A DNA stretch of 64,000 nt from Candidatus Fervidifonticultor secundus (GTDB lineage: Bacteria > Sysuimicrobiota > Sysuimicrobiia > Sysuimicrobiales > Humicultoraceae), in NCBI GenBank assembly GCA_031459385.1, contig JAVKIP010000004.1, positions 64,001-128,000 of the forward strand. Reading direction: 5' to 3'. The position numbers were made by a program, and so were the translations under genes. Shown piece after piece: positions 1-9,103 of the stretch. The notes beneath the pieces are model-generated. The model was not told the DNA's origin, did not search any database, and saw only the letters and a list, made by a program, of their open reading frames with translations. The number at the start of each line of letters is the position of its first letter. Within the stretch, counting starts at the first letter, position 1.

Positions 1-917
1 ACCAGGCGCTCTATGACGAGTTCACGCGCCAGACCGGTGTCCGCGTGAACCTGATCCAGGGCGATGCCGACCAGCTCATCGAGCGGATCAAGGCCGAAGG
101 CGCGGGCAGCCCGGCCGACGTGCTGATCACGGTGGACGCCGGCCGGCTGTACCGGGCGCAGCAGGCCGGGCTCTGCCAGCGGATCGCCTCGCCGGTCCTC
201 TCCGCCCGTCTCCCTGCCAGCCTGCGCGACCCCGAGGGCGCGTGGTACGGCTTCACCAAGCGCATGCGGGTGATCGCGTACGCACGGGAGCGGGTGGCGC
301 GCGCAGAGCTCTCCACCTACGAGGACCTGGCCGACCCCCGCTGGCGCGGCCGCGTGCTCGTGCGCAGCTCGAGCCACGTCTACAACCAGTCGCTGGTGGG
401 CGCCCTGGTGGCGTGGCACGGCGAGCCGTTCGTGGCGCGCTGGGCCCGCGGGATCGTGCAGAACTTCGCCCGGCCACCGCAGGGCGGGGACACCGACCAG
501 CTCCTGGCGCTGGCCGCCGGCGAAGGGGACGTGGCGCTCGTGAACCACTACTACTACGTCCGGCTGCTGAACTCCCCGCGGCCCCATGAGCGCGCCGCCG
601 CGGCAAAGGTTGGCCTGTTCTTCCCCAACCAGGGGCTGGAAGAGCGCGGGGTGCACGTGAACCTGAGCGGCGCCTGCGTCGTCGCCACGGCGGCGCACCG
701 CGCCGCGGCCGTCGCGTTCCTCGAGTACCTAGCGTCCGACGGCGCGCAGGAGATCTTCGCCAGGGGGAACTTCGAGTTCCCGGCGGTCCGCGGCATCACC
801 AATCCCTTGGCCGCCATCGCCCCCGCCCTGCTCAGGGAGGACCCGCTGAACGCCCGCATCTACGCGGCTAACGGCGGCAGGGCGCTGCAACTCATGGTCG
901 GCGCCGGCTGGCGCTAG
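1..917 (+). CDS. fbpA: Fe(3+) ABC transporter substrate-binding protein (FbpA/FutA-like), 5' truncated by window edge
   Basis: Frame open from position 3. Motifs SPADVLITVDAG, YEDLADPRWRG, SSSHVYNQS, GGDTDQL and NHYY (Tyr-Tyr iron ligands); followed by permease and ATPase. Confidence 0.9.
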   Translation, partial: QALYDEFTRQTGVRVNLIQGDADQLIERIKAEGAGSPADVLITVDAGRLYRAQQAGLCQRIASPVLSARLPASLRDPEGAWYGFTKRMRVIAYARERVARAELSTYEDLADPRWRGRVLVRSSSHVYNQSLVGALVAWHGEPFVARWARGIVQNFARPPQGGDTDQLLALAAGEGDVALVNHYYYVRLLNSPRPHERAAAAKVGLFFPNQGLEERGVHVNLSGACVVATAAHRAAAVAFLEYLASDGAQEIFARGNFEFPAVRGITNPLAAIAPALLREDPLNARIYAANGGRALQLMVGAGWR

Positions 918-931
918 CAGGACGCCGCTCC

Positions 932-2596
932 GTGACGGGGCGGTCACTCTACCGGGTGCTGCCCGCGGCCGGCCTGGTCGTCGCCGGCGCGCTCTCGCTG
1001 CCCGTGCTGACCGTGGCGGGCAGTCTGCTCGTGCCGGCGGACGGCCCGTGGGTGGAGTTCGTCCGCCTGGTCCTGCCCCGCTACGTCGTCACCACCGTGT
1101 GGCTGGTGCTCGGGGTCGGTGCCGGGACACTTGTGATCGGCGTCGGGACGGCCTGGCTCGTCACGATGTGCCGTGTCCCCGGGCAGCGGATCTGGCAGTG
1201 GGCGCTCCTGCTGCCGATGGCGGTGCCCGCGTACCTGCTGGCCTACACCTACGCCGACCTGTTGCAGTACGCGGGGCCGGTGCAGACCGCGCTGCGGGCG
1301 TGGTTCGGGTGGAGCCGGGGCGACTACTGGTTTCCGCAGATCCGGTCCCTGGGCGGCGCCATCTTCGTCATGACCTGCGTCCTCTATCCGTATGTGTACA
1401 TCCTGGCCCGCGCGGCGTTCCTCGAGCAGTCGGGGGCCGTGCTGGAAGCCAGCCGCACACTGGGGCACTCGCCGTGGAGCACGTTCTGGCGTGTGGCGCT
1501 GCCGCTGGCGCGGCCGGGCATCGCCGCCGGGGTCGCCCTGGCCGGCATGGAGGTGCTCGCCGACTTCGGGACGGTCAAGCACTTCGAGCTCGATACCTTC
1601 GCCACGGGCATCTACGTGACGTGGTTCACCCTGGGCTCCCCGGTGGGCGCGGCTCGGCTGGCCGCCGGGCTCATGGTATTCGTGCTGGCCGTCATGAGCC
1701 TCGAGCGTGCCTCGCGCGGCAGCCGGCGCTTCCATCCGGCGGCGGCACCGCGGCGCGTGGCCGCGTTTCCGCTGCGCGGGTGGCGGGCTGGGGCGGCCGT
1801 CGCGGCCTGCCTGCTGCCGCTGCTGTGCGGCTTCGCGCTGCCGGCCGGGGCGCTGGCCCTGATGGCCGTGACCGCCGGCGACCCGCTGTTCGGGCCGGCG
1901 TTCCTGCGGCTCGCGGCCAACACGCTGCTGCTGGCGCTGCTGGCCGGGACGCTGGCGGTGGCCGTCGCCGCCCTGATCGCCTACGGCCTGCGCCTGGAGC
2001 CCTCTCCGCTCATGCGGGCGGCGGCGCGGGTGGCCGGCCTGGGCTACAGCGTGCCCGGCGCGGTGATCGCCGTGGGCGTCATGATCCCGTTCGGGTACGC
2101 CGACCGCGTCCTGGGCACCTGGCTGTACGCGGCGGCGGGCCGGCCGCCCGGGCTCGTCTTCAGCGGCACGATCTTCACGCTGGTGTACGCGTACCTCGTG
2201 CGCTTCCTGGCGGTCTCGTTGAACACGGTGGAAGCCGGGCTGGGGCGGATCAGACCCAGCATGGACGATGCGGCGCGGACGCTGGGCCATGGCCCCGGCA
2301 GCACACTGCTGCGCGTGCACGCGCCCCTCATGCGCGGCAGCCTGCTCGCCGCCGCGCTCCTGGTCGTGGTCGACCTGCTGAAGGAGCTCCCCGCCACCCT
2401 GATCCTGCGGCCCTTCAACTTCGACACGCTCGCGGTGCGGGTCTACCAGCTCGCGAGCGACGAGCGGCTGGCGGAGGCCTCCACGGCGGCGCTCGCGATC
2501 GTCGCCGTCGGCATCCTGCCGGTGCTCCTGCTGGACCGCACGATGGCGCGGGTGCGGGGGGCGCGCCACGACCCGCTGGAGGCCATGCGCCCGTGA
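932..2596 (+). CDS. fbpB: Fe(3+) ABC transporter permease
   Basis: 554 aa polytopic membrane protein with two EAA-type loops (LEASRTLG, MDDAARTLG), ADFGTV and KELPATLILRPFNFDTLAV. Confidence 0.9.
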   Translation: MTGRSLYRVLPAAGLVVAGALSLPVLTVAGSLLVPADGPWVEFVRLVLPRYVVTTVWLVLGVGAGTLVIGVGTAWLVTMCRVPGQRIWQWALLLPMAVPAYLLAYTYADLLQYAGPVQTALRAWFGWSRGDYWFPQIRSLGGAIFVMTCVLYPYVYILARAAFLEQSGAVLEASRTLGHSPWSTFWRVALPLARPGIAAGVALAGMEVLADFGTVKHFELDTFATGIYVTWFTLGSPVGAARLAAGLMVFVLAVMSLERASRGSRRFHPAAAPRRVAAFPLRGWRAGAAVAACLLPLLCGFALPAGALALMAVTAGDPLFGPAFLRLAANTLLLALLAGTLAVAVAALIAYGLRLEPSPLMRAAARVAGLGYSVPGAVIAVGVMIPFGYADRVLGTWLYAAAGRPPGLVFSGTIFTLVYAYLVRFLAVSLNTVEAGLGRIRPSMDDAARTLGHGPGSTLLRVHAPLMRGSLLAAALLVVVDLLKELPATLILRPFNFDTLAVRVYQLASDERLAEASTAALAIVAVGILPVLLLDRTMARVRGARHDPLEAMRP

Positions 2597-2685
2597 GGCC
2601 TGCCTTGTTGGGCGCACGGGGCTCTGGTACGCTGTCGGTGCAGATGCCGGCGGGTCGCGCCCCGCGCGGCCTACGTGAGCGGCAC

Positions 2686-3813
2686 ATGGCCATTGGCGAG
2701 GAGCGGGGGGCGCCCCCCGTCATCAGCATCCGCAGCGTGCTTCGGCGGTACGACCCCGCGGGACCGCCGGCCGTGGACCGCCTGTCGCTCGACGTGGCCC
2801 AGGGCGAGGTCCTCGCGCTGCTGGGTCCCTCCGGCAGCGGCAAGACCACGGTCCTGCGGCTCGTGGCCGGCTTCGAGCGGCCCGATGCGGGCGAAGTGTG
2901 GATCGCCGGGCGGCCGGTCGCAGGTGGCGGGGTGTGGGTTCCGCCCGAGGCGCGCAGCGTCGGCATGGTTTTCCAGGACTACGCGCTGTTCCCGCATCTG
3001 ACCGTCGAGGAAAACGTCGCCTTCGGCCTGCACTGTGTGCAGCGCGTGGAGCGCCCCCGGCGGACGCTCGAAGCGCTGGACCTGGTGGGGATGACGGCGT
3101 TCGCCGGCCGCTACCCCCACGAGCTGTCCGGGGGCCAGCAGCAGCGTGTCGCCCTGGCGCGGGCGCTGGCGCCGCAGCCGTTCGCGGTCCTGCTCGACGA
3201 GCCGTTCTCGAATCTCGACGCCGACCTGCGGGCGCAGGTGCGCGACGAGGTGCGCGGCATCCTGAAGCAGACCGGCACCAGCGCGATCTTCGTGACCCAC
3301 GACCAGCAGGAGGCCCTGGTGCTGGGCGACCGCGTCGGGGTGCTGCAGCAGGGTCGGCTCGAGCAGGTGGACACCCCGGAGCGCATCTTCCACATGCCCC
3401 GGACGCGCTTCGTCGCCCGGTTCTTGGGCCGGGCTGACTTCCTCCCCGCCAGGGTGACCGCACAGGGACTGCAGACCGAAGTCGGCGTTCTCCCTCAGCG
3501 CCCGCCACTCGGGAATGGCGACGACGTGGAGATCCTGGTGCGGCCGGACGACATCGCCATTGCGCCTGCGGCAGGCGGCGCCGGCATCGTCATCCGCCGC
3601 CTGTTCCAGGGCGGCGCAGTGCTGTATTGTATCGAGCTCCCCTCCGGCCGCCGCCTCCACAGCCTGCAGCCGCACACGGTGCACCTGGAGCCAGGCGCCC
3701 GCGTGGACGTGCGCCTGGCGCCGGGACACCCGCTGGCCTGCTTCCTCAACGGCCAGGCGGTTGCCGCTGTTACTGACGCCGCGCCCGGGGAACCTGCCCG
3801 GGCAGGCGACTGA
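2686..3813 (+). CDS. fbpC: ABC transporter ATP-binding protein (FbpC/PotA-like) with C-terminal TOBE-like region
   Basis: Walker A GPSGSGKT, signature LSGGQQQR, Walker B VLLDEP, VTHD. Start estimated at ATG 2686 within ORF 1048..3813. Confidence 0.88.
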   Translation: MAIGEERGAPPVISIRSVLRRYDPAGPPAVDRLSLDVAQGEVLALLGPSGSGKTTVLRLVAGFERPDAGEVWIAGRPVAGGGVWVPPEARSVGMVFQDYALFPHLTVEENVAFGLHCVQRVERPRRTLEALDLVGMTAFAGRYPHELSGGQQQRVALARALAPQPFAVLLDEPFSNLDADLRAQVRDEVRGILKQTGTSAIFVTHDQQEALVLGDRVGVLQQGRLEQVDTPERIFHMPRTRFVARFLGRADFLPARVTAQGLQTEVGVLPQRPPLGNGDDVEILVRPDDIAIAPAAGGAGIVIRRLFQGGAVLYCIELPSGRRLHSLQPHTVHLEPGARVDVRLAPGHPLACFLNGQAVAAVTDAAPGEPARAGD

Positions 3814-3820
3814 GCCGCGC

Positions 3821-4603
3821 ATGGCGGTCCGTCCCGCAGGATGGCTGCTGGACCTGGCGGAGGGTCCGGTGGACTACGGCGAGGCCTGGGCCCTGCAGCG
3901 CGCGCTGGTGGCCGCGCGGCAAGACGCGCGGGTGCCGGATCTCCTGATGCTGCTGGAGCACGCGCCGGTGGTCACGATCGGCCGCAGCGGGCGCCGGGGG
4001 AACGTGCTGATGCCGGCCGAGGAGCTGCGCCGGCGCGGTATCGCGCTGTACGAGGTCGAGCGCGGGGGCGACGTGACCTACCACGGACCCGGCCAGCTGG
4101 TCGGATACCCCGTTATGCACCTGCGCGCGCTGGGGGAGGACGTGGTACGGTACGTGCGGCTGCTGGAGGAGGCGGTCATCGTCACGCTGGCGTCGTTTGG
4201 CATCGCGGCGGGCCGCGAGCGCGGTTACCCCGGGGTCTGGGTCGGCGGCGCGAAGATCTGCGCGGTGGGTGTGGCGGTGAAACGAGCGGTCACCATGCAC
4301 GGCTTCGCCCTGAACGTCACCACGCCCCCCGAGGCGTTCGCCGCCATCAACCCGTGCGGCCTGGGCCGGCCGGTGACGTCCATGGCCGCGGTTCTGGGCC
4401 GCCCCGTCGCGCTGGCCGACGTGCGGCCGCGCTACGCGGCGGCGTTCTCCCGGGTCTTCCAGCTCCCGCTGCGGCCCGTATCCCTGCAGGCGCTGCCCGA
4501 CGAGGTGCGTGCCCGCGCCGCCTCCGAACGCGCTGCCCTGGCAGCGGCCACCCTGATGGCGGCCGCCGGGCACCCCGCCGGCCGGGCGCCGGCGCCTGCG
4601 TAG
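3821..4603 (+). CDS. lipB: Lipoyl(octanoyl) transferase
   Basis: LLEHAPVVTIG, RGGDVTYHGPGQ, KICAVG, HGFALN and PCG motifs. ATG 3821 lies just after the fbpC stop. Confidence 0.92.
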   Translation: MAVRPAGWLLDLAEGPVDYGEAWALQRALVAARQDARVPDLLMLLEHAPVVTIGRSGRRGNVLMPAEELRRRGIALYEVERGGDVTYHGPGQLVGYPVMHLRALGEDVVRYVRLLEEAVIVTLASFGIAAGRERGYPGVWVGGAKICAVGVAVKRAVTMHGFALNVTTPPEAFAAINPCGLGRPVTSMAAVLGRPVALADVRPRYAAAFSRVFQLPLRPVSLQALPDEVRARAASERAALAAATLMAAAGHPAGRAPAPA

Positions 4604-4614
4604 AGGCAGAGACG

Positions 4615-4890
4615 ATGGCCACCGTGCTCATCCCCGCGCCCCTGCGACGCCTGACCGCGGGGCAGGCGCGCATCGTGGTGCCCGCCGGATCGGTGGCGGA
4701 GCTGCTGGACCGGCTCGACGCCAGGTATCCGGGCATGCGCGCCTACCTGCTCGACGACGCCGGCACCCTCCGCGCCTACGTGAACATCTTCGTCAACAGC
4801 GCCGAGGTCCGCAGCCTGGCCGGCCTGCAGACACCGCTCGCCGACGGCGACGAGGTAGCGATCCTGCCGGCCATGGCCGGCGGCGCGTGA
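4615..4890 (+). CDS. Ubiquitin-like sulfur carrier (MoaD/ThiS/CysO family) ending ...AMAGG-A
   Basis: 91 aa beta-grasp pattern (VLIPAPLRRLT, YVNIFVN, TPLADGDEVAILPAMAGGA); upstream GAGG. Confidence 0.88.
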   Translation: MATVLIPAPLRRLTAGQARIVVPAGSVAELLDRLDARYPGMRAYLLDDAGTLRAYVNIFVNSAEVRSLAGLQTPLADGDEVAILPAMAGGA

Positions 4891-5735
4891 GCGAGCGCTC
4901 CGCCCGCGAGCCCCGCGGGCTGACCGCGCCGGTGCGGCTGCAGCTGCCCGACCTGCGGATCGTGCCGTCCGCGGCCCTGCGCCTGCACGAGGAGTGCGAT
5001 CCGGAGCGCGTCGCGCGCCTGGCCCGGCGCCTGGCGGCCGAAGGCGTGCTGCGCAACCCCCCTCTGGTCGCGCCGCTGGGTGACGACGCATACGTCGTCC
5101 TGGACGGCGCCAATCGCGTCACGGCCCTCCAGCAGAGCGGCGTGCCCCATCAGGTCGTGCAGGTCGTGGACTACGACGATCCCGCCGTCGTGCTCGACGT
5201 GTGGGCGCACCTGCTCTCCGACGATGCGGCGGCGGTGCGCGCGGCGGGCCCCTGGGAGACGCTGCCCACAGACGAGCTGCGCGCCGGACTCGCCGCCGGC
5301 CGCCTGGTCTGCGGGCTGCTGACGCGGGTCGGAGCGTTCGGCCTGCCCGGCCGGGCCGACCTGGCCGAGCGCGTGCGCAGCATGGCCGCGGTGGTGGCGA
5401 CATACAAGGGGCGCCAGACGATCTACCGCGTCCAGCCGGCCGACCTGGACGCGCTGGCGCGCGAGTACGGCCGGGCCGACGCCCTGGTGATCTTCCCGCG
5501 CCTGTCGAAGGCGGACGTCCGTGCCATTGCTCGGCTCCCCCAGAAGCTGCCGACGGGCATCAGCCGGCACGTCGTCCCGCTGCGCGCGCTGCGCGTGAAC
5601 ACGGACCTGGCGCTGCTGCGAGGCCCCGAGCCCACGGCGGTGAAGCAGGCACGGCTCGATGAGGCGATCCGGTCGCGGCTCCTCGAGCATCGCGTGCGCC
5701 ACTACCCCGAGCCCACCGTCCTCTACGACGAGTGA
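4887..5735 (+). CDS. ParB/Srx-fold protein resembling the free serine kinases SerK/SbnI
   Basis: LRLHEE, LRNPPLV, YVVLDGANR, VWAHL and C-terminal LPTGISRH; no HTH visible. GTGA overlap with both neighbours. Confidence 0.72.
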   Translation: MSERSAREPRGLTAPVRLQLPDLRIVPSAALRLHEECDPERVARLARRLAAEGVLRNPPLVAPLGDDAYVVLDGANRVTALQQSGVPHQVVQVVDYDDPAVVLDVWAHLLSDDAAAVRAAGPWETLPTDELRAGLAAGRLVCGLLTRVGAFGLPGRADLAERVRSMAAVVATYKGRQTIYRVQPADLDALAREYGRADALVIFPRLSKADVRAIARLPQKLPTGISRHVVPLRALRVNTDLALLRGPEPTAVKQARLDEAIRSRLLEHRVRHYPEPTVLYDE

Positions 5736-6730
5736 TGGCGTACCGGTTTCCGCCGTCCGCCCCGGCGCCCATCGCCGGCGACGTCCTGGGTCTCATCGGG
5801 AACACGCCCCTGGTCCGGCTCTCGCGGGTCGCCCCGCTGCGCGAAGGCGTCGAGTTGTACGCGAAGCTGGAGGCGCAGAACCCGGGCGGATCGGTCAAGG
5901 ACCGTCCGGTGCTGCGCATCGTGGAGGACGCCGAGCGCGACGGGCGGCTGCGGCCAGGCCAGGTCATCCTGGACTCCACCAGCGGCAACGCCGGCATCGC
6001 CTACGCCATGATCGGCGCCGCCAAGGGTTACCGCGTCACCCTCGTCGTGCCGGGCAATGCCAGCGACGAGCGCAAGGGCATCCTCCGGGCGTACGGGGCC
6101 GACCTGGTGCTCTCCGACCCCCTGGAAGGGTCAGACGGCGCCATCTTGGTGGCCCGGCGCATGGCGGCGGAGGCGCCGGAGCGGTACGCCTACCTCGACC
6201 AGTACAGCAACCCCAGCAACTGGCGTGCTCACTACGACACTACGGGCCCGGAGATCGTGCGCCAGACCCACGGCCGCATCACCCACTTCGTGGCCGGGGT
6301 GGGCACCAGCGGCACGGTCATCGGGGTCGGCCGCCGCCTGCGCGAGACGAACCCCGCAGTCGAGATCGTGGCCGTCGAGCCCGACGACGCGTTCCACGGC
6401 ATCGAAGGCCTCAAGCACCTGCCCACGGCCATCGTGCCGGGCATCTACGACCCGTCGGTACCGCACCGGACGCTGCGCGTGGCCACCGACGACGCCTACG
6501 CGTTCACTCGCCGGCTGGCCGTGACCGAGGGGCTCTTCGTGGGACCCTCGGCAGGCGCCGCGCTGGCCGCGGCGCTGGCGGTAGCGCGCGACCTGCGAGA
6601 GGGCGTCATCGTCGCCATCTTTCCGGACGCCGGCGACCGGTACCTGTCCACCAGCGTCTGGCGCCAGGTCGCGCGCGCCGGCCCGCCGGGGCCGGGGCCC
6701 GGAGGCCCGCCCGGCGCAACCGGTATATAA
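5735..6730 (+). CDS. cysM: PLP-dependent cysteine synthase, CysM/O-phosphoserine sulfhydrylase type
   Basis: IGNTPLV, NPGGSVKDR (PLP Lys), STSGNAG, GVGTSGT, GLKHL, FPDAGDRYLS. Confidence 0.85.
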   Translation: MAYRFPPSAPAPIAGDVLGLIGNTPLVRLSRVAPLREGVELYAKLEAQNPGGSVKDRPVLRIVEDAERDGRLRPGQVILDSTSGNAGIAYAMIGAAKGYRVTLVVPGNASDERKGILRAYGADLVLSDPLEGSDGAILVARRMAAEAPERYAYLDQYSNPSNWRAHYDTTGPEIVRQTHGRITHFVAGVGTSGTVIGVGRRLRETNPAVEIVAVEPDDAFHGIEGLKHLPTAIVPGIYDPSVPHRTLRVATDDAYAFTRRLAVTEGLFVGPSAGAALAAALAVARDLREGVIVAIFPDAGDRYLSTSVWRQVARAGPPGPGPGGPPGATGI

Positions 6731-6731
6731 T
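6726..6731 (+). promoter_or_regulatory. -10 box TATAAT; probable leaderless promoter for mec-rrf2
   Basis: Perfect TATAAT 7 nt before ATG 6739, in an AT-rich patch with no SD. Confidence 0.6.
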
Positions 6732-6738
6732 AAACTGA

Positions 6739-7152
6739 ATGGCCCTGATCCTGGAGCGGGCGCAGGTGGACGCCATGATCGAGCACGCGCGCGCCGAGCA
6801 CCCCAACGAGTGTTGTGGCCTGCTGGCGGGCCTCGGCGACCGCGTCGTGCGCGTCTACCGCGGCCGCAACGCCGATCGGAGCCCCTACACCTACCGGCTG
6901 GATCCCCAGGAGCAACTGCGCTTTTTCCGGGAGATCGACGACGCGGGGCTGGAGCTGGTCGGGATCTACCACTCGCACACCCAGTCGGCCGCCTACCCCT
7001 CGCGTACCGACATCGCCAAGGCGTACTATCCTGACGCGGCGTACGTCATCCTCTCGATCCTCGACCCCGCGGCGCCGGCCGCGGACGTGGAGATCCGGGC
7101 TTTCCGGATCCGTGACGGCGTGGTCACCGAAGAGGAGCTGGTGATCGCATGA
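6739..7152 (+). CDS. mec: JAMM/M67 metallopeptidase (Mec-like CysO-cysteine peptidase)
   Basis: PNECCGLL and IYHSHT...PSRTD (JAMM E...HxH-x7-S-xx-D); adjacent to cysM and the sulfur carrier. Confidence 0.85.
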   Translation: MALILERAQVDAMIEHARAEHPNECCGLLAGLGDRVVRVYRGRNADRSPYTYRLDPQEQLRFFREIDDAGLELVGIYHSHTQSAAYPSRTDIAKAYYPDAAYVILSILDPAAPAADVEIRAFRIRDGVVTEEELVIA

Positions 7153-7628
7153 AGGTCTCGACGCGGGCCGAGTACGGGTTGCGCGCCCTGCTGGACCTGG
7201 TGGCGCACTACGGCCAGGGGCCGGTGCACAGCCGCCAGATCGCCGAGCGCCAGGGCCTGCCCGAGCCCTACCTCAACCAGCTGATGGCCGCGCTGCGGCG
7301 CGCCGGGCTGGTCAGCAGCAAGCGCGGCCCGCACGGCGGGCATGTGCTCTCGAAACCGCCGGCGGCGATCACGCTGCGCGAGGCCTTCGAGGTGCTGGAG
7401 GGTACCACCGCGCCATGGTGGTGCGTCGAGGTCGACGATCCCGACTGCGCGTTCGTGGACGGGTGCGGGCTGCGTCCCGTCTGGCGCGCCGTGCAGGCCG
7501 CCGCCGACGGCGTCCTCAACCGCCTCACGCTGGCCGATCTGCGCCCCGCGCCTGCCCCGCTGGTGCCGGTCGGGGTCGGGGAGCGGTATCCCGTGCGCGG
7601 GCGCCGCCCTGCCGCACGGCGGCGGTAG
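7149..7628 (+). CDS. Rrf2 family transcriptional regulator with three Cys (putative Fe-S)
   Basis: MKVSTRAEYGLRAL, LVSSKRGPHGGH, and C-x7-C-x5-C (CVEVDDPDCAFVDGC). Confidence 0.88.
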   Translation: MKVSTRAEYGLRALLDLVAHYGQGPVHSRQIAERQGLPEPYLNQLMAALRRAGLVSSKRGPHGGHVLSKPPAAITLREAFEVLEGTTAPWWCVEVDDPDCAFVDGCGLRPVWRAVQAAADGVLNRLTLADLRPAPAPLVPVGVGERYPVRGRRPAARRR

Positions 7629-7661: not shown

Positions 7662-7676
7662 ATGGAGGAAGACGCC

Positions 7677-8372
7677 ATGGGTGTGTGCGCCGTGAACGCC
7701 GGTCGGCCGTCTACCGCGGTCTCCCAGGAAGACCGCGCCCGGTTCGAGACCCTGGTCAACGAGCACCTCGACAGCCTCTACGGCAGCGCGCTGCGCCTGA
7801 CCCGCAACCGCGCCGCAGCCGAGGACCTGGTCCAGGAGACGTTCCTCAAGGCCTGGCGGTCGTTCCACACGTTCCAGCCCGGCACGAACGCCCGCGCCTG
7901 GCTGTACAAGATCCTGATGAACGCCTACATCGACAGCTACCGCAAGGCCGCGCGCGAGCCGGAGCTGATCGACCAGGAAGACGTCGGCGACTTCTATCTG
8001 TACGCCAAGGCGCAGGAGAGCGACGAGTACCGGCGCGCTGGCGACCCCGAGGAGACGCTGCTGGCCCGGATCATGGACGCCGACGTCAAGGCGGCGCTGG
8101 AGCAGGTGCCCGAGCCGTTCCGCATGGCGGTGATCCTGGCCGACCTGGAGGAGTTCTCGTACCGGGAGATCGCCGAGATCCTGGGCATCCCCATCGGGAC
8201 GGTCATGTCCCGCCTCTACCGCGGGCGCCGGCACCTGCAGCGCCTCCTGTGGGACTACGCGAAGCGTGCCGGTTACGTCAACGGAGATACCGCCGCGCCC
8301 GGTGGCGGCGCGACGGCGGGGCACAGGCCCCCGGGGGCGCCGCCCAAACCGCGCACCGCAGGCGACCGATGA
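7677..8372 (+). CDS. ECF RNA polymerase sigma factor, SigR/SigH-like
   Basis: [61 protein letters not shown] 7664-7669. Confidence 0.9.
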
Positions 8373-8614
8373 CCGAGATCGACTGTCGGGAGTTGCTCCG
8401 CCAGCTCTGGATGTACCTCGACGGCGAAGCCGACGCGCCGGTGGGCCAGGACCTGCAGCGCCACATCGCCCGGTGCCTGCCGTGCCGGCAGCACGCCGAG
8501 TTCGAGCGCCGGCTGCGCGAGATCATCCAATACAAGTGCCGCGGCGAGCGCGCGCCCGACCCCCTCCGGCAGGAACTGGCCCGCCTCCTGCGCATCTCGA
8601 TCCAGAGAGGCTAG
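8369..8614 (+). CDS. Zinc-binding (ZAS) anti-sigma factor, RsrA/RshA-like
   Basis: IDC...YLDGE...HIARCLPC (HxxxCxxC), ERAPDPLR; soluble, 81 aa; ATGA overlap with the sigma gene. Confidence 0.88.
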
Positions 8615-8719
8615 CCCCGCGCCGGGCCGGGGTGCGGCCCGGCCGGCGGAGGAACGGCGCGCACCTGCGCGAACTCCGCAGCGGTGCGCAGGCTGCAGGT
8701 GCATGCGGGGAGGGAGTCC

Positions 8720-9103
8720 ATGCTGACCAAGGACGTCATCCGCAGCGACGGTGCGCCGCTTCCCATCGGCCCGTACTCACAGGCGATCCGGGCCGGCGGC
8801 GTGCTCTACCTCTCGGGGCAGGTCCCGCTCGACCCGGCCACCGGGCAGCTGGTCGGTGGCGACATCAAGACCCAGACCCGGCGCGTGCTGGACAATCTGC
8901 GCGCGGTGCTGGAGGCCGCCGGGTCGTCGCTGGACCGCGTGGTGAAGACCACGGTCTACCTCCGAGACCTGAACGACTTCGGGGCCATGAACGAGGAGTA
9001 CGCCTCGTACTTCCGCGAGGTGCCCCCCGCCCGCACCACGATCCAGGCCGCCCGCCTGCCGCGCGACGCGCTGGTCATGATCGAGTGCATCGCGCTGGGG
9101 TAG
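8720..9103 (+). CDS. ridA: RidA family reactive intermediate/imine deaminase
   Basis: [30 protein letters not shown] (catalytic Arg), [13 protein letters not shown]. Confidence 0.9.

Follow-up and report, generated by a model that had tools for sequence, protein, structure and literature searches.

Results

A ParB-fold gene lies between cysO and cysM in a compact operon

The locus described here belongs to Candidatus Fervidifonticultor secundus, of the phylum Sysuimicrobiota, and lies in a stretch of 64,000 nucleotides (assembly GCA_031459385.1, contig JAVKIP010000004.1, positions 64,001 to 128,000 of the forward strand) that we refer to as the window. Its central gene encodes a ParB-fold protein that is probably a free L-serine kinase serving cysteine synthesis; we call it the SerK-like gene, after an archaeal relative. 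Between window positions 3818 and 7628, six genes on the + strand follow one another with almost no intergenic DNA:

3818..4603, + strand: LipB octanoyltransferase (NF010925 4.2e-52; PF21948)
4615..4890, + strand: CysO-like sulfur carrier of ThiS/MoaD fold, 91 amino acids, C-terminus AMAGG-A (PF02597 3.7e-15; SAMP1/MoaD-family NCBIfam matches)
4887..5735, + strand: SerK/SbnI-family ParB-fold protein, 282 amino acids, putative free L-serine kinase (NCBIfam SbnI 1.4e-14, SerK 5.4e-9)
5732..6730, + strand: CysM-type cysteine synthase dependent on pyridoxal 5′-phosphate (PLP), 332 amino acids (TIGR01138 396.6 bits, cut-off 394.2; PALP 5.1e-71)
6739..7152, + strand: Mec-like JAMM zinc peptidase, 137 amino acids (PF14464, Prok-JAB, 4.7e-27; desampylase NF041370 6.2e-27)
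7149..7628, + strand: Rrf2-family regulator (PF02082 1.9e-36; CymR NF047409 1.2e-27, under its cut-off)

A sequence-only reading of this DNA had placed the ParB-fold gene between a CysO-like carrier and a CysM-like synthase, overlapping both. The open reading frames and the DNA bear out that order and those coordinates: stop and start codons overlap in GTGA at 4887-4890 (cysO and the ParB-fold gene), in GTGA at 5732-5735 (the ParB-fold gene and cysM) and in ATGA between the Mec and Rrf2 genes. The range 4615-7628 also holds the Rrf2 gene (7149-7628), left unnamed in that reading; the nearest named models of its product are CymR and IscR, both under their cut-offs. This gene is kept after Mec in loci L001-L011 and L022. 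On the other side, lipB ends 11 nucleotides 5′ of cysO, also precedes the SerK-like gene in genome G029 and loci L001-L010, and is probably co-transcribed with the operon, with no obvious role in the pathway. Rfam returned no riboswitch near the operon. The five genes from 4615 to 7628 are translationally coupled, and we think it probable that they form one operon for the conversion of serine to cysteine. The arrangement itself is far beyond chance, recurring in at least 77 of the 88 genomes of the phylum that bear the SerK-like gene.

The ParB-fold protein belongs to the SerK/SbnI superfamily

Because sequence profile, predicted fold and catalytic residues agree, we regard membership of the ParB-fold protein in the SerK/SbnI superfamily as well founded. 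The NCBIfam SbnI match (1.4e-14) spans residues 22-263 of the protein and positions 7-237 of the 254 in the model; archaeal SerK matches at 5.4e-9. When the single sequence was searched against the PDB, the only matches were SbnI (1.2e-11 to 1.4e-8) and SerK/PF0380 (3e-7 to 5e-5). An alignment of 44 family members (A1) was the source of a profile, of the invariance counts below and of an AlphaFold2 model. Against PDB sequences the profile reached SbnI at 1.3e-30 and SerK/PF0380 at 1e-14 to 2e-12, and the next match was a ParB at 0.035.

The model has a mean predicted local distance difference test score of 91.3 and a predicted template modelling score of 0.87, with disorder confined to residues 1-17. 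It combines an N-terminal domain resembling ParB and sulfiredoxin (Srx) with a SerK-type C-terminal domain, and has no helix-turn-helix (HTH). In a Foldseek search of the PDB the nine best matches were all SbnI or SerK entries (231-270 columns, TMt 0.70-0.83); Noc, ParB, sulfiredoxin, PadC and KorB gave a TMq of at most 0.26 and aligned either with the N-domain only (~80-90 residues) or with a root-mean-square deviation (rmsd) above 18 Å. Profile and structure thus place the protein nearer to SbnI and SerK than to other ParB/Srx families. The absence of a ParB HTH, already remarked on in the sequence-only reading, agrees with this fold search, in which ParB, Noc and Srx align to the N-domain only. 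The canonical ParB hallmarks, namely an HTH, a C-terminal dimerisation domain and a GERR-type arginine patch, were found neither in the model nor in the searches; the corresponding motif is DGANR, with a single Arg.

That reading had also picked out motifs shared with the serine kinases (an HE glutamate, DGxxR, a Trp and (T/S)RH), and the alignment finds them kept, with H34-E35, D73-R77, W106 and R227 invariant. In full, the residues invariant in 44/44 sequences are H34, E35, D38, R41, D73-G74-A75-N76-R77, W106, H108, P222, G224, R227 and R233, together with a C-terminal motif (R271/Y273/E275/L279/D281); H228 of the ‘SRH’ varies. E35 aligns with SerK E30 and SbnI E20, and D73 with SbnI D58. 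SerK E30 is the residue changed (E30A, E30Q) in PDB entries 5x0e/g/j/k, as their titles state, and E20 and D58 are, we assume, essential residues of SbnI.

The family numbers at least 540 homologues, most of them unnamed or labelled ‘hypothetical’ or ‘ParB-like’. In a protein atlas the nearest clusters are called ‘hypothetical protein’; an archaeal ‘ATP-dependent L-serine kinase family’ cluster stands at rank 20 with a score of 0.95, which we treat as a lead only.

The SerK-like gene is a core gene of its phylum and neighbours cysM and cysO

The distribution was followed in 94 genomes of the window's phylum, 54 of which are of high quality (at least 90% complete, at most 5% contaminated). With a SerK-like gene in 88 of the 94, and in 53 of the 54 high-quality ones, it is a core gene of the phylum. 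A cysK/M-family gene follows on the same strand, 11-191 bp downstream, in at least 77 of the 88 gene-bearing genomes. Upstream, at least 35/88 have a second, longer PALP gene (PALP and CBS domains were confirmed in one genome), and in at least 33/88 the SerK-like gene is flanked by both. A cysO homologue lies upstream in at least 69/88, directly in 38 and at 1.4-3.9 kb with a CBS-type gene between in 31; for 19/88 the matches listed included none in the 5 kb upstream on that strand, and these 19 take in a genus in which LipB, SerK-like, JAMM and Rrf2 genes follow one another. Two genomes (G016 and G024) are flagged as unpublished, and without them the figures become 86/92 for the gene, at least 75/86 for the downstream cysK/M gene and at least 67/86 for the upstream cysO. 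The link to cysO, cysM and mec that is seen in the window therefore holds across the phylum (at least 69/88 for cysO, at least 77/88 for cysM).

A common variant within the phylum is represented by locus L074 (G039:C21:119500-125800), where the order is CysO, an enzyme with PALP and CBS domains, the SerK-like protein, CysM and a two-domain rhodanese, with no JAMM gene within the fetched stretch. In 12 Anaerolineae-type loci a CBS-type PALP gene stands directly upstream of the SerK-like gene.

Genomes with the gene tend to lack CysE

The genome of the window is 97.6% complete, and no CysE was found in it, the best match (31 bits) falling in hexapeptide-repeat proteins. The same absence extends over the phylum, with CysE in 1 of the 94 genomes and in none of the 54 high-quality ones, and over 10 SerK-like-bearing genomes of two other phyla, of unstated completeness, where it was found in 0/10. 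Genes of the cysK/CBS family are present in 5/5 Eisenbacteria-type genomes.

In Anaerolineae we compared 151 evenly drawn genomes, counting CysE over its cut-off. Among the 53 with a SerK-like gene, CysE was present in 13 and not found in 40; among the 98 in which no SerK-like gene was found, it was present in 59 and not found in 39. The odds ratio is 0.21, from related genomes that are not independent, and we read it as a tendency of the SerK-like gene to track the absence of CysE, not as a statistical test.

Serine could be supplied by GlyA, which the window genome encodes. A long, ACT-type SerA occurs in 47/94 genomes of the phylum (35/54 of high quality), and short 2-hydroxyacid dehydrogenases matching the SerA core (E ≤1e-45) in 92/94, with 42-51% identity among the short ones listed. 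We had considered that SerA might be missing from many kinase-bearing genomes, and dropped the idea in view of these short SerA-like dehydrogenases; to judge by sequence, phosphoglycerate dehydrogenase activity is possible in any of these genomes.

The remaining enzymes of the proposed carrier-dependent route are encoded in the genome

The operon's cysM is the sole cysK/M-family gene of the genome (one match over cut-off). Alignments of its product show SVKDR, TSGNAG and GVGTSGT, which we take to be the PLP-lysine, asparagine and glycine loops. Carrier activation would fall to an enzyme encoded elsewhere: the sequence-only reading had seen no MoeZ/ThiF activator in the window, there is none on the window's contig either, and a search of the whole genome located a single MoeZ-like ThiF E1 with a C-terminal rhodanese domain on another contig (G000:C58:125429-126757; ThiF 281.9 bits). 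It scores 447 bits for MoeB (PRK08762) and 422.8 bits for MoeZ (NF005902, cut-off 647), both under cut-off.

The C-terminal di-glycine of CysO is present and capped by one Ala (AMAGG-A). Orthologues end in GG-V, GG-RR, GG-TTVARPRR or GG-IAAARPRP, or are fused to the next gene. Of the 120 homologues listed, eight (P0015, P0027, P0033, P0034, P0040, P0042, P0058 and P0064) are such CysO::SerK-like fusions, of 370-376 amino acids with a ThiS domain, and in 5/5 of those examined the frame runs from the carrier through GG into the kinase domain. Judged from these translations, the carrier is always capped or fused in the cases looked at. Adenylation of ThiS, MoaD and CysO needs a free Gly-Gly carboxylate, and since the carrier here is capped, a peptidase must mature it. 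The Mec-like protein carries the motif E23 + H78-S-H80-x7-S88-x2-D91, read from its translation, and is the only strong JAMM of the genome. We infer that it may have a dual role, uncapping CysO and cleaving the CysO-cysteine adduct.

Release of the carrier from a CysO::SerK-like fusion would need a JAMM-type cut, as in ubiquitin precursors. The genome has three ThiS-family carriers, namely the window CysO, a carrier ending in GG-AAAW and a MoaD-MoaE fusion (G000:C58:142092-143231) that joins the small and large subunits of molybdopterin synthase in one frame and is a third carrier that would need a cut after GG.

A proposed route from serine to cysteine

We propose the following pathway. With a nucleotide (ATP or ADP) as donor, the SerK/SbnI-family enzyme would phosphorylate free L-serine on its hydroxyl group, Glu35 acting as the base, and so yield O-phospho-L-serine. 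Mec would first remove the cap after the di-glycine of CysO, a single Ala here, and the single MoeZ-like E1/rhodanese enzyme (G000:C58) would adenylate and sulfurate the carrier. CysM would make aminoacrylate from O-phosphoserine, the C-terminal thiocarboxylate of CysO would attack the aminoacrylate, and Mec would hydrolyse the resulting CysO-cysteine adduct to cysteine and free CysO. The Rrf2 protein probably regulates the operon.

On balance, the sequence and model evidence makes a forward kinase that feeds CysM in cysteine synthesis the probable function of the protein. The forward direction is favoured because the two relatives that have been characterised work as kinases in vivo, according to the account in Makino 2016 (PMC5120207). 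Thermodynamics points the same way, since the equilibrium constant of the reverse kinase reaction is estimated at ~4e-4 in the text of GapMind 2026 (PMC13759103), and that reaction would come after an unfavourable dehydrogenase step and have no hydrolytic pull. We also favour it because the gene is coupled in the phylum to cysO, cysM and mec and not to serA, because the lineage is without CysE yet keeps CysM, and because serine is available through GlyA, while one study reports for relatives in the phylum the use of the reductive glycine pathway, which yields serine (PMC11604079).

Observations that weigh against this proposal

A number of observations weigh against this proposal, beginning with the protein itself. 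It matches no Pfam family at E ≤0.01, the SerK_C model included, its NCBIfam scores are far under the equivalog cut-offs (NF033589 SbnI, 54.1 against 350 bits; NF053625 SerK, 35.6 against 380 bits), and its identity to solved relatives is ~20% in the Foldseek matches. On account of these scores and the lack of a Pfam match, it is best classed by sequence as a separate, unnamed subfamily, an equivalog of neither SbnI nor SerK.

The substrate of CysM is the second difficulty. Its best PDB match is Salmonella/E. coli CysM (279 bits); chains 3dwg and 3dki, titled Cysteine synthase B / O-phosphoserine sulfhydrylase and presumably mycobacterial, rank 8th and 17th at 232 bits. Arg220 of mycobacterial CysM selects phosphoserine, and the sequence-only reading had assigned this part to the basic residue in GLKH of the window enzyme. 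That argument fails: in the alignments ‘EGLKH’ lies opposite ‘PGIRR’ of the E. coli/Salmonella enzyme (the CysK loop is longer there), and since E. coli CysM, an O-acetylserine user, is basic at this place too (Arg-Arg), the residue is not diagnostic of O-phosphoserine as opposed to O-acetylserine.

The third difficulty is that other enzymes could make or use O-phosphoserine. On a contig other than that of the operon, the genome encodes a SerA of full length (659 bits), immediately preceded by a class-V (SerC-like) aminotransferase, so O-phosphoserine may already be available without the kinase. The direct phosphorylation of serine suggested by the sequence-only reading can stand beside these genes; the kinase is not necessarily the sole source of O-phosphoserine. 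Classical SerB (TIGR00338) was found in 0/94 genomes of the phylum, with a model that finds SerB in only 8/14 control genomes, and this absence leaves room for a reverse, SerB-like role of the SerK-like protein. The same profile in Anaerolineae gave 0/151 over cut-off, with weak matches to haloacid dehalogenase family proteins only; we set this result aside as uninformative. The gene and CysE are also not mutually exclusive, as 13 of the 53 gene-bearing Anaerolineae carry both.

Finally, the gene is not always found beside cysM. One genus of the phylum (8 genomes) has the order LipB, SerK-like, JAMM, Rrf2, with no adjacent cysM or cysO. In three Eisenbacteria-type loci (L016, L020 and L028) Pfam identifies a zinc alcohol dehydrogenase-family gene 3′ of the SerK-like gene and no adjacent PLP enzyme. 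In these three loci the dehydrogenase gene is followed by a CCG/4Fe-4S protein and then an AlkZ-like glycosylase; CysE was not found in these genomes either, and their cysK/CBS-family genes lie elsewhere. The remaining Eisenbacteria-type loci showed none of the window's genes in BLASTP searches, which were made against the window's genes only.

In Anaerolineae, 11 of the 53 matches lie in long open frames with other domains as assigned by Pfam (loci L063-L073, from genomes G148, G190, G202, G236, G162, G208, G225, G169, G238, G150 and G227). Nine are fusions of a D-2-hydroxyacid dehydrogenase (SerA-like) to the SerK-like domain (589-641 amino acids), and two join PALP, dehydrogenase and SerK-like domains in one frame (915-922 amino acids). 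Compared with residues 1-280 of the SerA of the window genome, the dehydrogenase part is 47-52% identical in the nine and 37-38% in the two triple fusions. Three of the 11 fusion loci have a class-V (SerC-like) aminotransferase gene upstream, within 1-kb flanks. The fusions mirror the serK neighbourhood that Makino 2016 describes for Desulfurococcales, where the gene adjoins those of phosphoglycerate dehydrogenase and an aminotransferase and is read as part of a route from serine to 3-phosphoglycerate (PMC5120207). As the partners all handle O-phosphoserine or its direct precursor, they strengthen the case that the family interconverts serine and O-phosphoserine, in one direction or the other.

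Alternative functions

A wider proposal would draw these lineages together, and we offer it tentatively, as a possibility that we rather doubt. O-phosphoserine made by the kinase from free serine would stand at the centre of C3 and sulfur-amino-acid metabolism in a number of uncultured lineages whose serine comes from glycine (reductive glycine pathway/GlyA) and which are without CysE and SerB. In bacteria of the window's type cysteine would have a single route, with the kinase as its committed step, and the kinase would be co-produced with, and in some relatives fused to, a capped ubiquitin-like carrier that is cut by a JAMM peptidase. In Anaerolineae the domain, fused to a SerA-like dehydrogenase and a CysK/CBS-type enzyme, would also drive an ATP-powered assimilation of serine to 3-phosphoglycerate.

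The reaction may instead run backwards. SerA and the SerC-like enzyme would make O-phosphoserine, the SerK-like protein would turn part of it into serine, by transfer to a nucleotide or by hydrolysis, and so replace SerB, and CysM would take the rest; an O-phosphoserine branch point would explain why the gene sits in a cys operon. Consistent with this, classical SerB was found in none of the 94 genomes of the phylum, and a search for the TIGR00338 type in that of the window found none either, while SerA and a class-V aminotransferase are present. The SerA-like::SerK-like fusions of Anaerolineae fit as well, with a SerC-like gene upstream in 3/11, and DUF1015, a remote structural relative of SbnI from serA-serC operons, is described in GapMind 2026 as complementing an E. 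coli serB mutant (PMC13759103). Against it stand the equilibrium constant of ~4e-4, following a dehydrogenase step that is already unfavourable, and the in vivo kinase role of both characterised family members. Moreover, genomes of the phylum keep the gene together with cysM and cysO and not with serA, GlyA can supply serine, and TIGR00338 finds SerB in only 8/14 controls, so that phosphatases of other types may exist. We consider the reverse role unlikely.

A forward kinase could also serve mainly to assimilate serine, through O-phosphoserine and 3-phosphohydroxypyruvate to 3-phosphoglycerate by way of the aminotransferase and reverse SerA, with cysteine as a side branch. Makino 2016, in the passage on Desulfurococcales, proposes this route for archaea, with serK beside dehydrogenase and aminotransferase genes (PMC5120207); the same association occurs as fusions in Anaerolineae, and the reductive glycine pathway is reported in relatives in the phylum (PMC11604079, in the part concerned). 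In the window genome and its phylum, however, translational coupling ties the gene to cysO and cysM, whereas in the window genome SerA and the aminotransferase are encoded on another contig, and the route leaves the phylum-wide lack of CysE unexplained. As the principal function it seems improbable to us, although it is compatible with a cysteine-pathway kinase and does not exclude one.

We give as little credence to the possibility that the protein is no serine kinase at all, and instead regulates the operon as a DNA-binding protein of SbnI type or uses ATP on some other substrate, such as another hydroxy-amino acid or the C-terminus of CysO. NCBIfam names SbnI as bifunctional, a regulator and an O-phospho-L-serine synthase, the CysO::SerK-like fusions show a close coupling to the carrier, identity to the characterised enzymes is low, and a SerK-like archaeal protein is reported, in the relevant part of a survey, to bind CTP and not ATP (PMC12704722). 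Yet the invariant residues are the catalytic ones and not a DNA-binding surface, and the operon already has an Rrf2 regulator. As to other substrates, the genome encodes a ThrB homoserine kinase elsewhere, and carrier activation can fall to the MoeZ-like E1. The SerK-like gene, moreover, is retained where cysO is missing, both in one genus of the phylum and in two further phyla, and its function must therefore be independent of the carrier.

That an ordinary ParB, nuclease or sulfiredoxin homologue lies here by chance, as the labels ‘ParB-like’ and ‘ParB N-terminal domain-containing protein’ on some homologues and the ParB/Srx fold of the N-domain might suggest, is ruled out to our satisfaction by the profile (0.035 for ParB against 1e-30 for SbnI), by partial fold matches (ParB, Noc and Srx over ~80-90 residues or at rmsd >18 Å), by the lack of an HTH and a dimerisation domain and by the cysM synteny (at least 77/88).

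Relation to known systems

In the usual account, bacteria make cysteine with CysE and CysK/M, and the exception is the mycobacterial O-phosphoserine/CysO route, which draws on SerA and SerC. To our knowledge, members of the SerK/SbnI family have so far been described in a few archaea and in a single siderophore cluster of staphylococci. SbnI (Staphylococcus aureus / S. pseudintermedius; 5ujd, 5uje, 6nr6), the free L-serine kinase for staphyloferrin B, is the best sequence relative (1e-30) and shares the full-length two-domain fold (TMt 0.80-0.83), the Glu of LHE and the Asp of DGxxR with the window protein. SbnI adjoins SbnA, a CysK-family PLP enzyme that uses O-phosphoserine. It differs in having ~21-22% identity, in serving a siderophore cluster and in also regulating transcription, whereas the window gene has a CysM partner in primary metabolism with a protein thiocarboxylate as donor, is a core gene of its phylum and encodes an extra invariant C-terminal motif.

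SerK (Thermococcus kodakarensis TK0378, 5x0b and other entries; Pyrococcus PF0380, 1vk1), which is ADP-dependent and serves cysteine synthesis, has the same fold (TMt 0.70-0.80), an E30 that corresponds to E35 and a TRH motif that matches (T/S)RH. The logic is alike, in that serine is activated by phosphorylation and not by acetylation, as set out in the pertinent part of Makino 2016 (PMC5120207). SerK differs in being archaeal, at 18-20% identity, in lying outside a cys operon in T. kodakarensis and in feeding a sulfide-using CysK instead of a CysO-dependent CysM.

The mycobacterial mec-cysO-cysM cluster with MoeZ brings together the same three families, with the E1/rhodanese encoded elsewhere as in the window genome. 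Mycobacterial O-phosphoserine for CysM comes from SerA/SerC, and full-text searches found no literature describing a serine kinase gene in that cluster. The mycobacterial pathway is regulated by SigH, and a redox-type extracytoplasmic function (ECF) sigma/anti-sigma pair adjoins the window operon. Compared with mycobacteria, the window has the order cysO-serK-cysM-mec, a cap after GG and a CysM nearer to E. coli CysM by score.

DUF1015 ‘SerBK’, for which the part of GapMind 2026 devoted to it proposes an interconversion of serine and O-phosphoserine, has a remotely SbnI-like fold and is encoded with serine-pathway genes (PMC13759103), a context that resembles the SerA::SerK-like fusions of Anaerolineae. 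It belongs to another family, which that study detected by structure only, and as described there lies in serA-serC operons and complements serB, whereas the window gene lies in a cys operon.

A parallel on the methionine side is found on contig C23 of the same genome (G000:C23:56324-58841, L060), where a tightly packed minus-strand cluster encodes a ThrB homoserine kinase, a ThrC-family PLP enzyme (TIGR00260 265.7 bits) and the carrier that ends in AMAGG-AAAW; by analogy it looks like a MetM/MetO-type route. In the MetM/MetO logic, a kinase makes O-phosphohomoserine, which a PLP enzyme combines with the thiocarboxylate of a ThiS-like carrier to give homocysteine; a JAMM peptidase completes the set. 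MetM/MetO of Streptomyces, listed in one passage of GapMind 2026 (PMC13759103), differs from the window operon in that it concerns homoserine and methionine and that its PLP enzyme is of the ThrC family.

Each part of the window system thus has a known relative (SbnI/SerK, CysO, CysM, Mec, MoeZ), and the combination is new. The sequence-only reading did not know this combination as described, and our full-text literature searches likewise turned up no paper reporting a cysO-cysM-mec cluster with a SerK/SbnI homologue in it. A search by terms, confined to the main texts of two papers about the phylum (PMC11962464, PMC11604079), met with neither a serine kinase nor CysM. In the part of its text concerned, a survey of the ParB fold names SerK and SbnI only as known outliers (PMC12704722), and a passage of Makino 2016 states that no clear SerK homologue is found among bacteria (PMC5120207).

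If the proposed cysteine route is correct, an entire phylum, along with parts of two or more further phyla, would use a bacterial SerK/SbnI-family enzyme to activate serine by phosphorylation. A family of at least 540 homologues, now called ‘hypothetical’ or ‘ParB-like’, would gain a name, the ‘no CysE’ gap in pathway reconstructions of uncultured groups would be closed, and serine-to-cysteine conversion would be seen to fit in a compact four-gene module. The capped and fused carrier precursors offer a clear case of bacterial ubiquitin-like precursor processing.

Neighbouring features of the window

Directly 5′ of lipB, at window positions 3-3813 (+), lies an iron-type ABC transporter, judged by its translations to comprise a periplasmic binding protein, a two-domain permease and an ATPase. 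On the 3′ side the operon is followed by an ECF sigma factor (7662-8372, +), a small anti-sigma factor (~8372-8614, +) and RidA (8684-9103), a trio that is kept 3′ of the operon in loci L001-L011. The anti-sigma factor carries an HxxxCxxC zinc motif, and its counterpart in G029 is zf-HC2. The position of such a sigma/anti-sigma pair, of the thiol-redox type, next to a cysteine operon is reminiscent of control by SigH/SigR. Farther along the window are a tRNA gene (RF00005, 10321-10391, +, 59.2 bits) and a cobalamin riboswitch (RF00174, 43813-44027, +, 94.8 bits).

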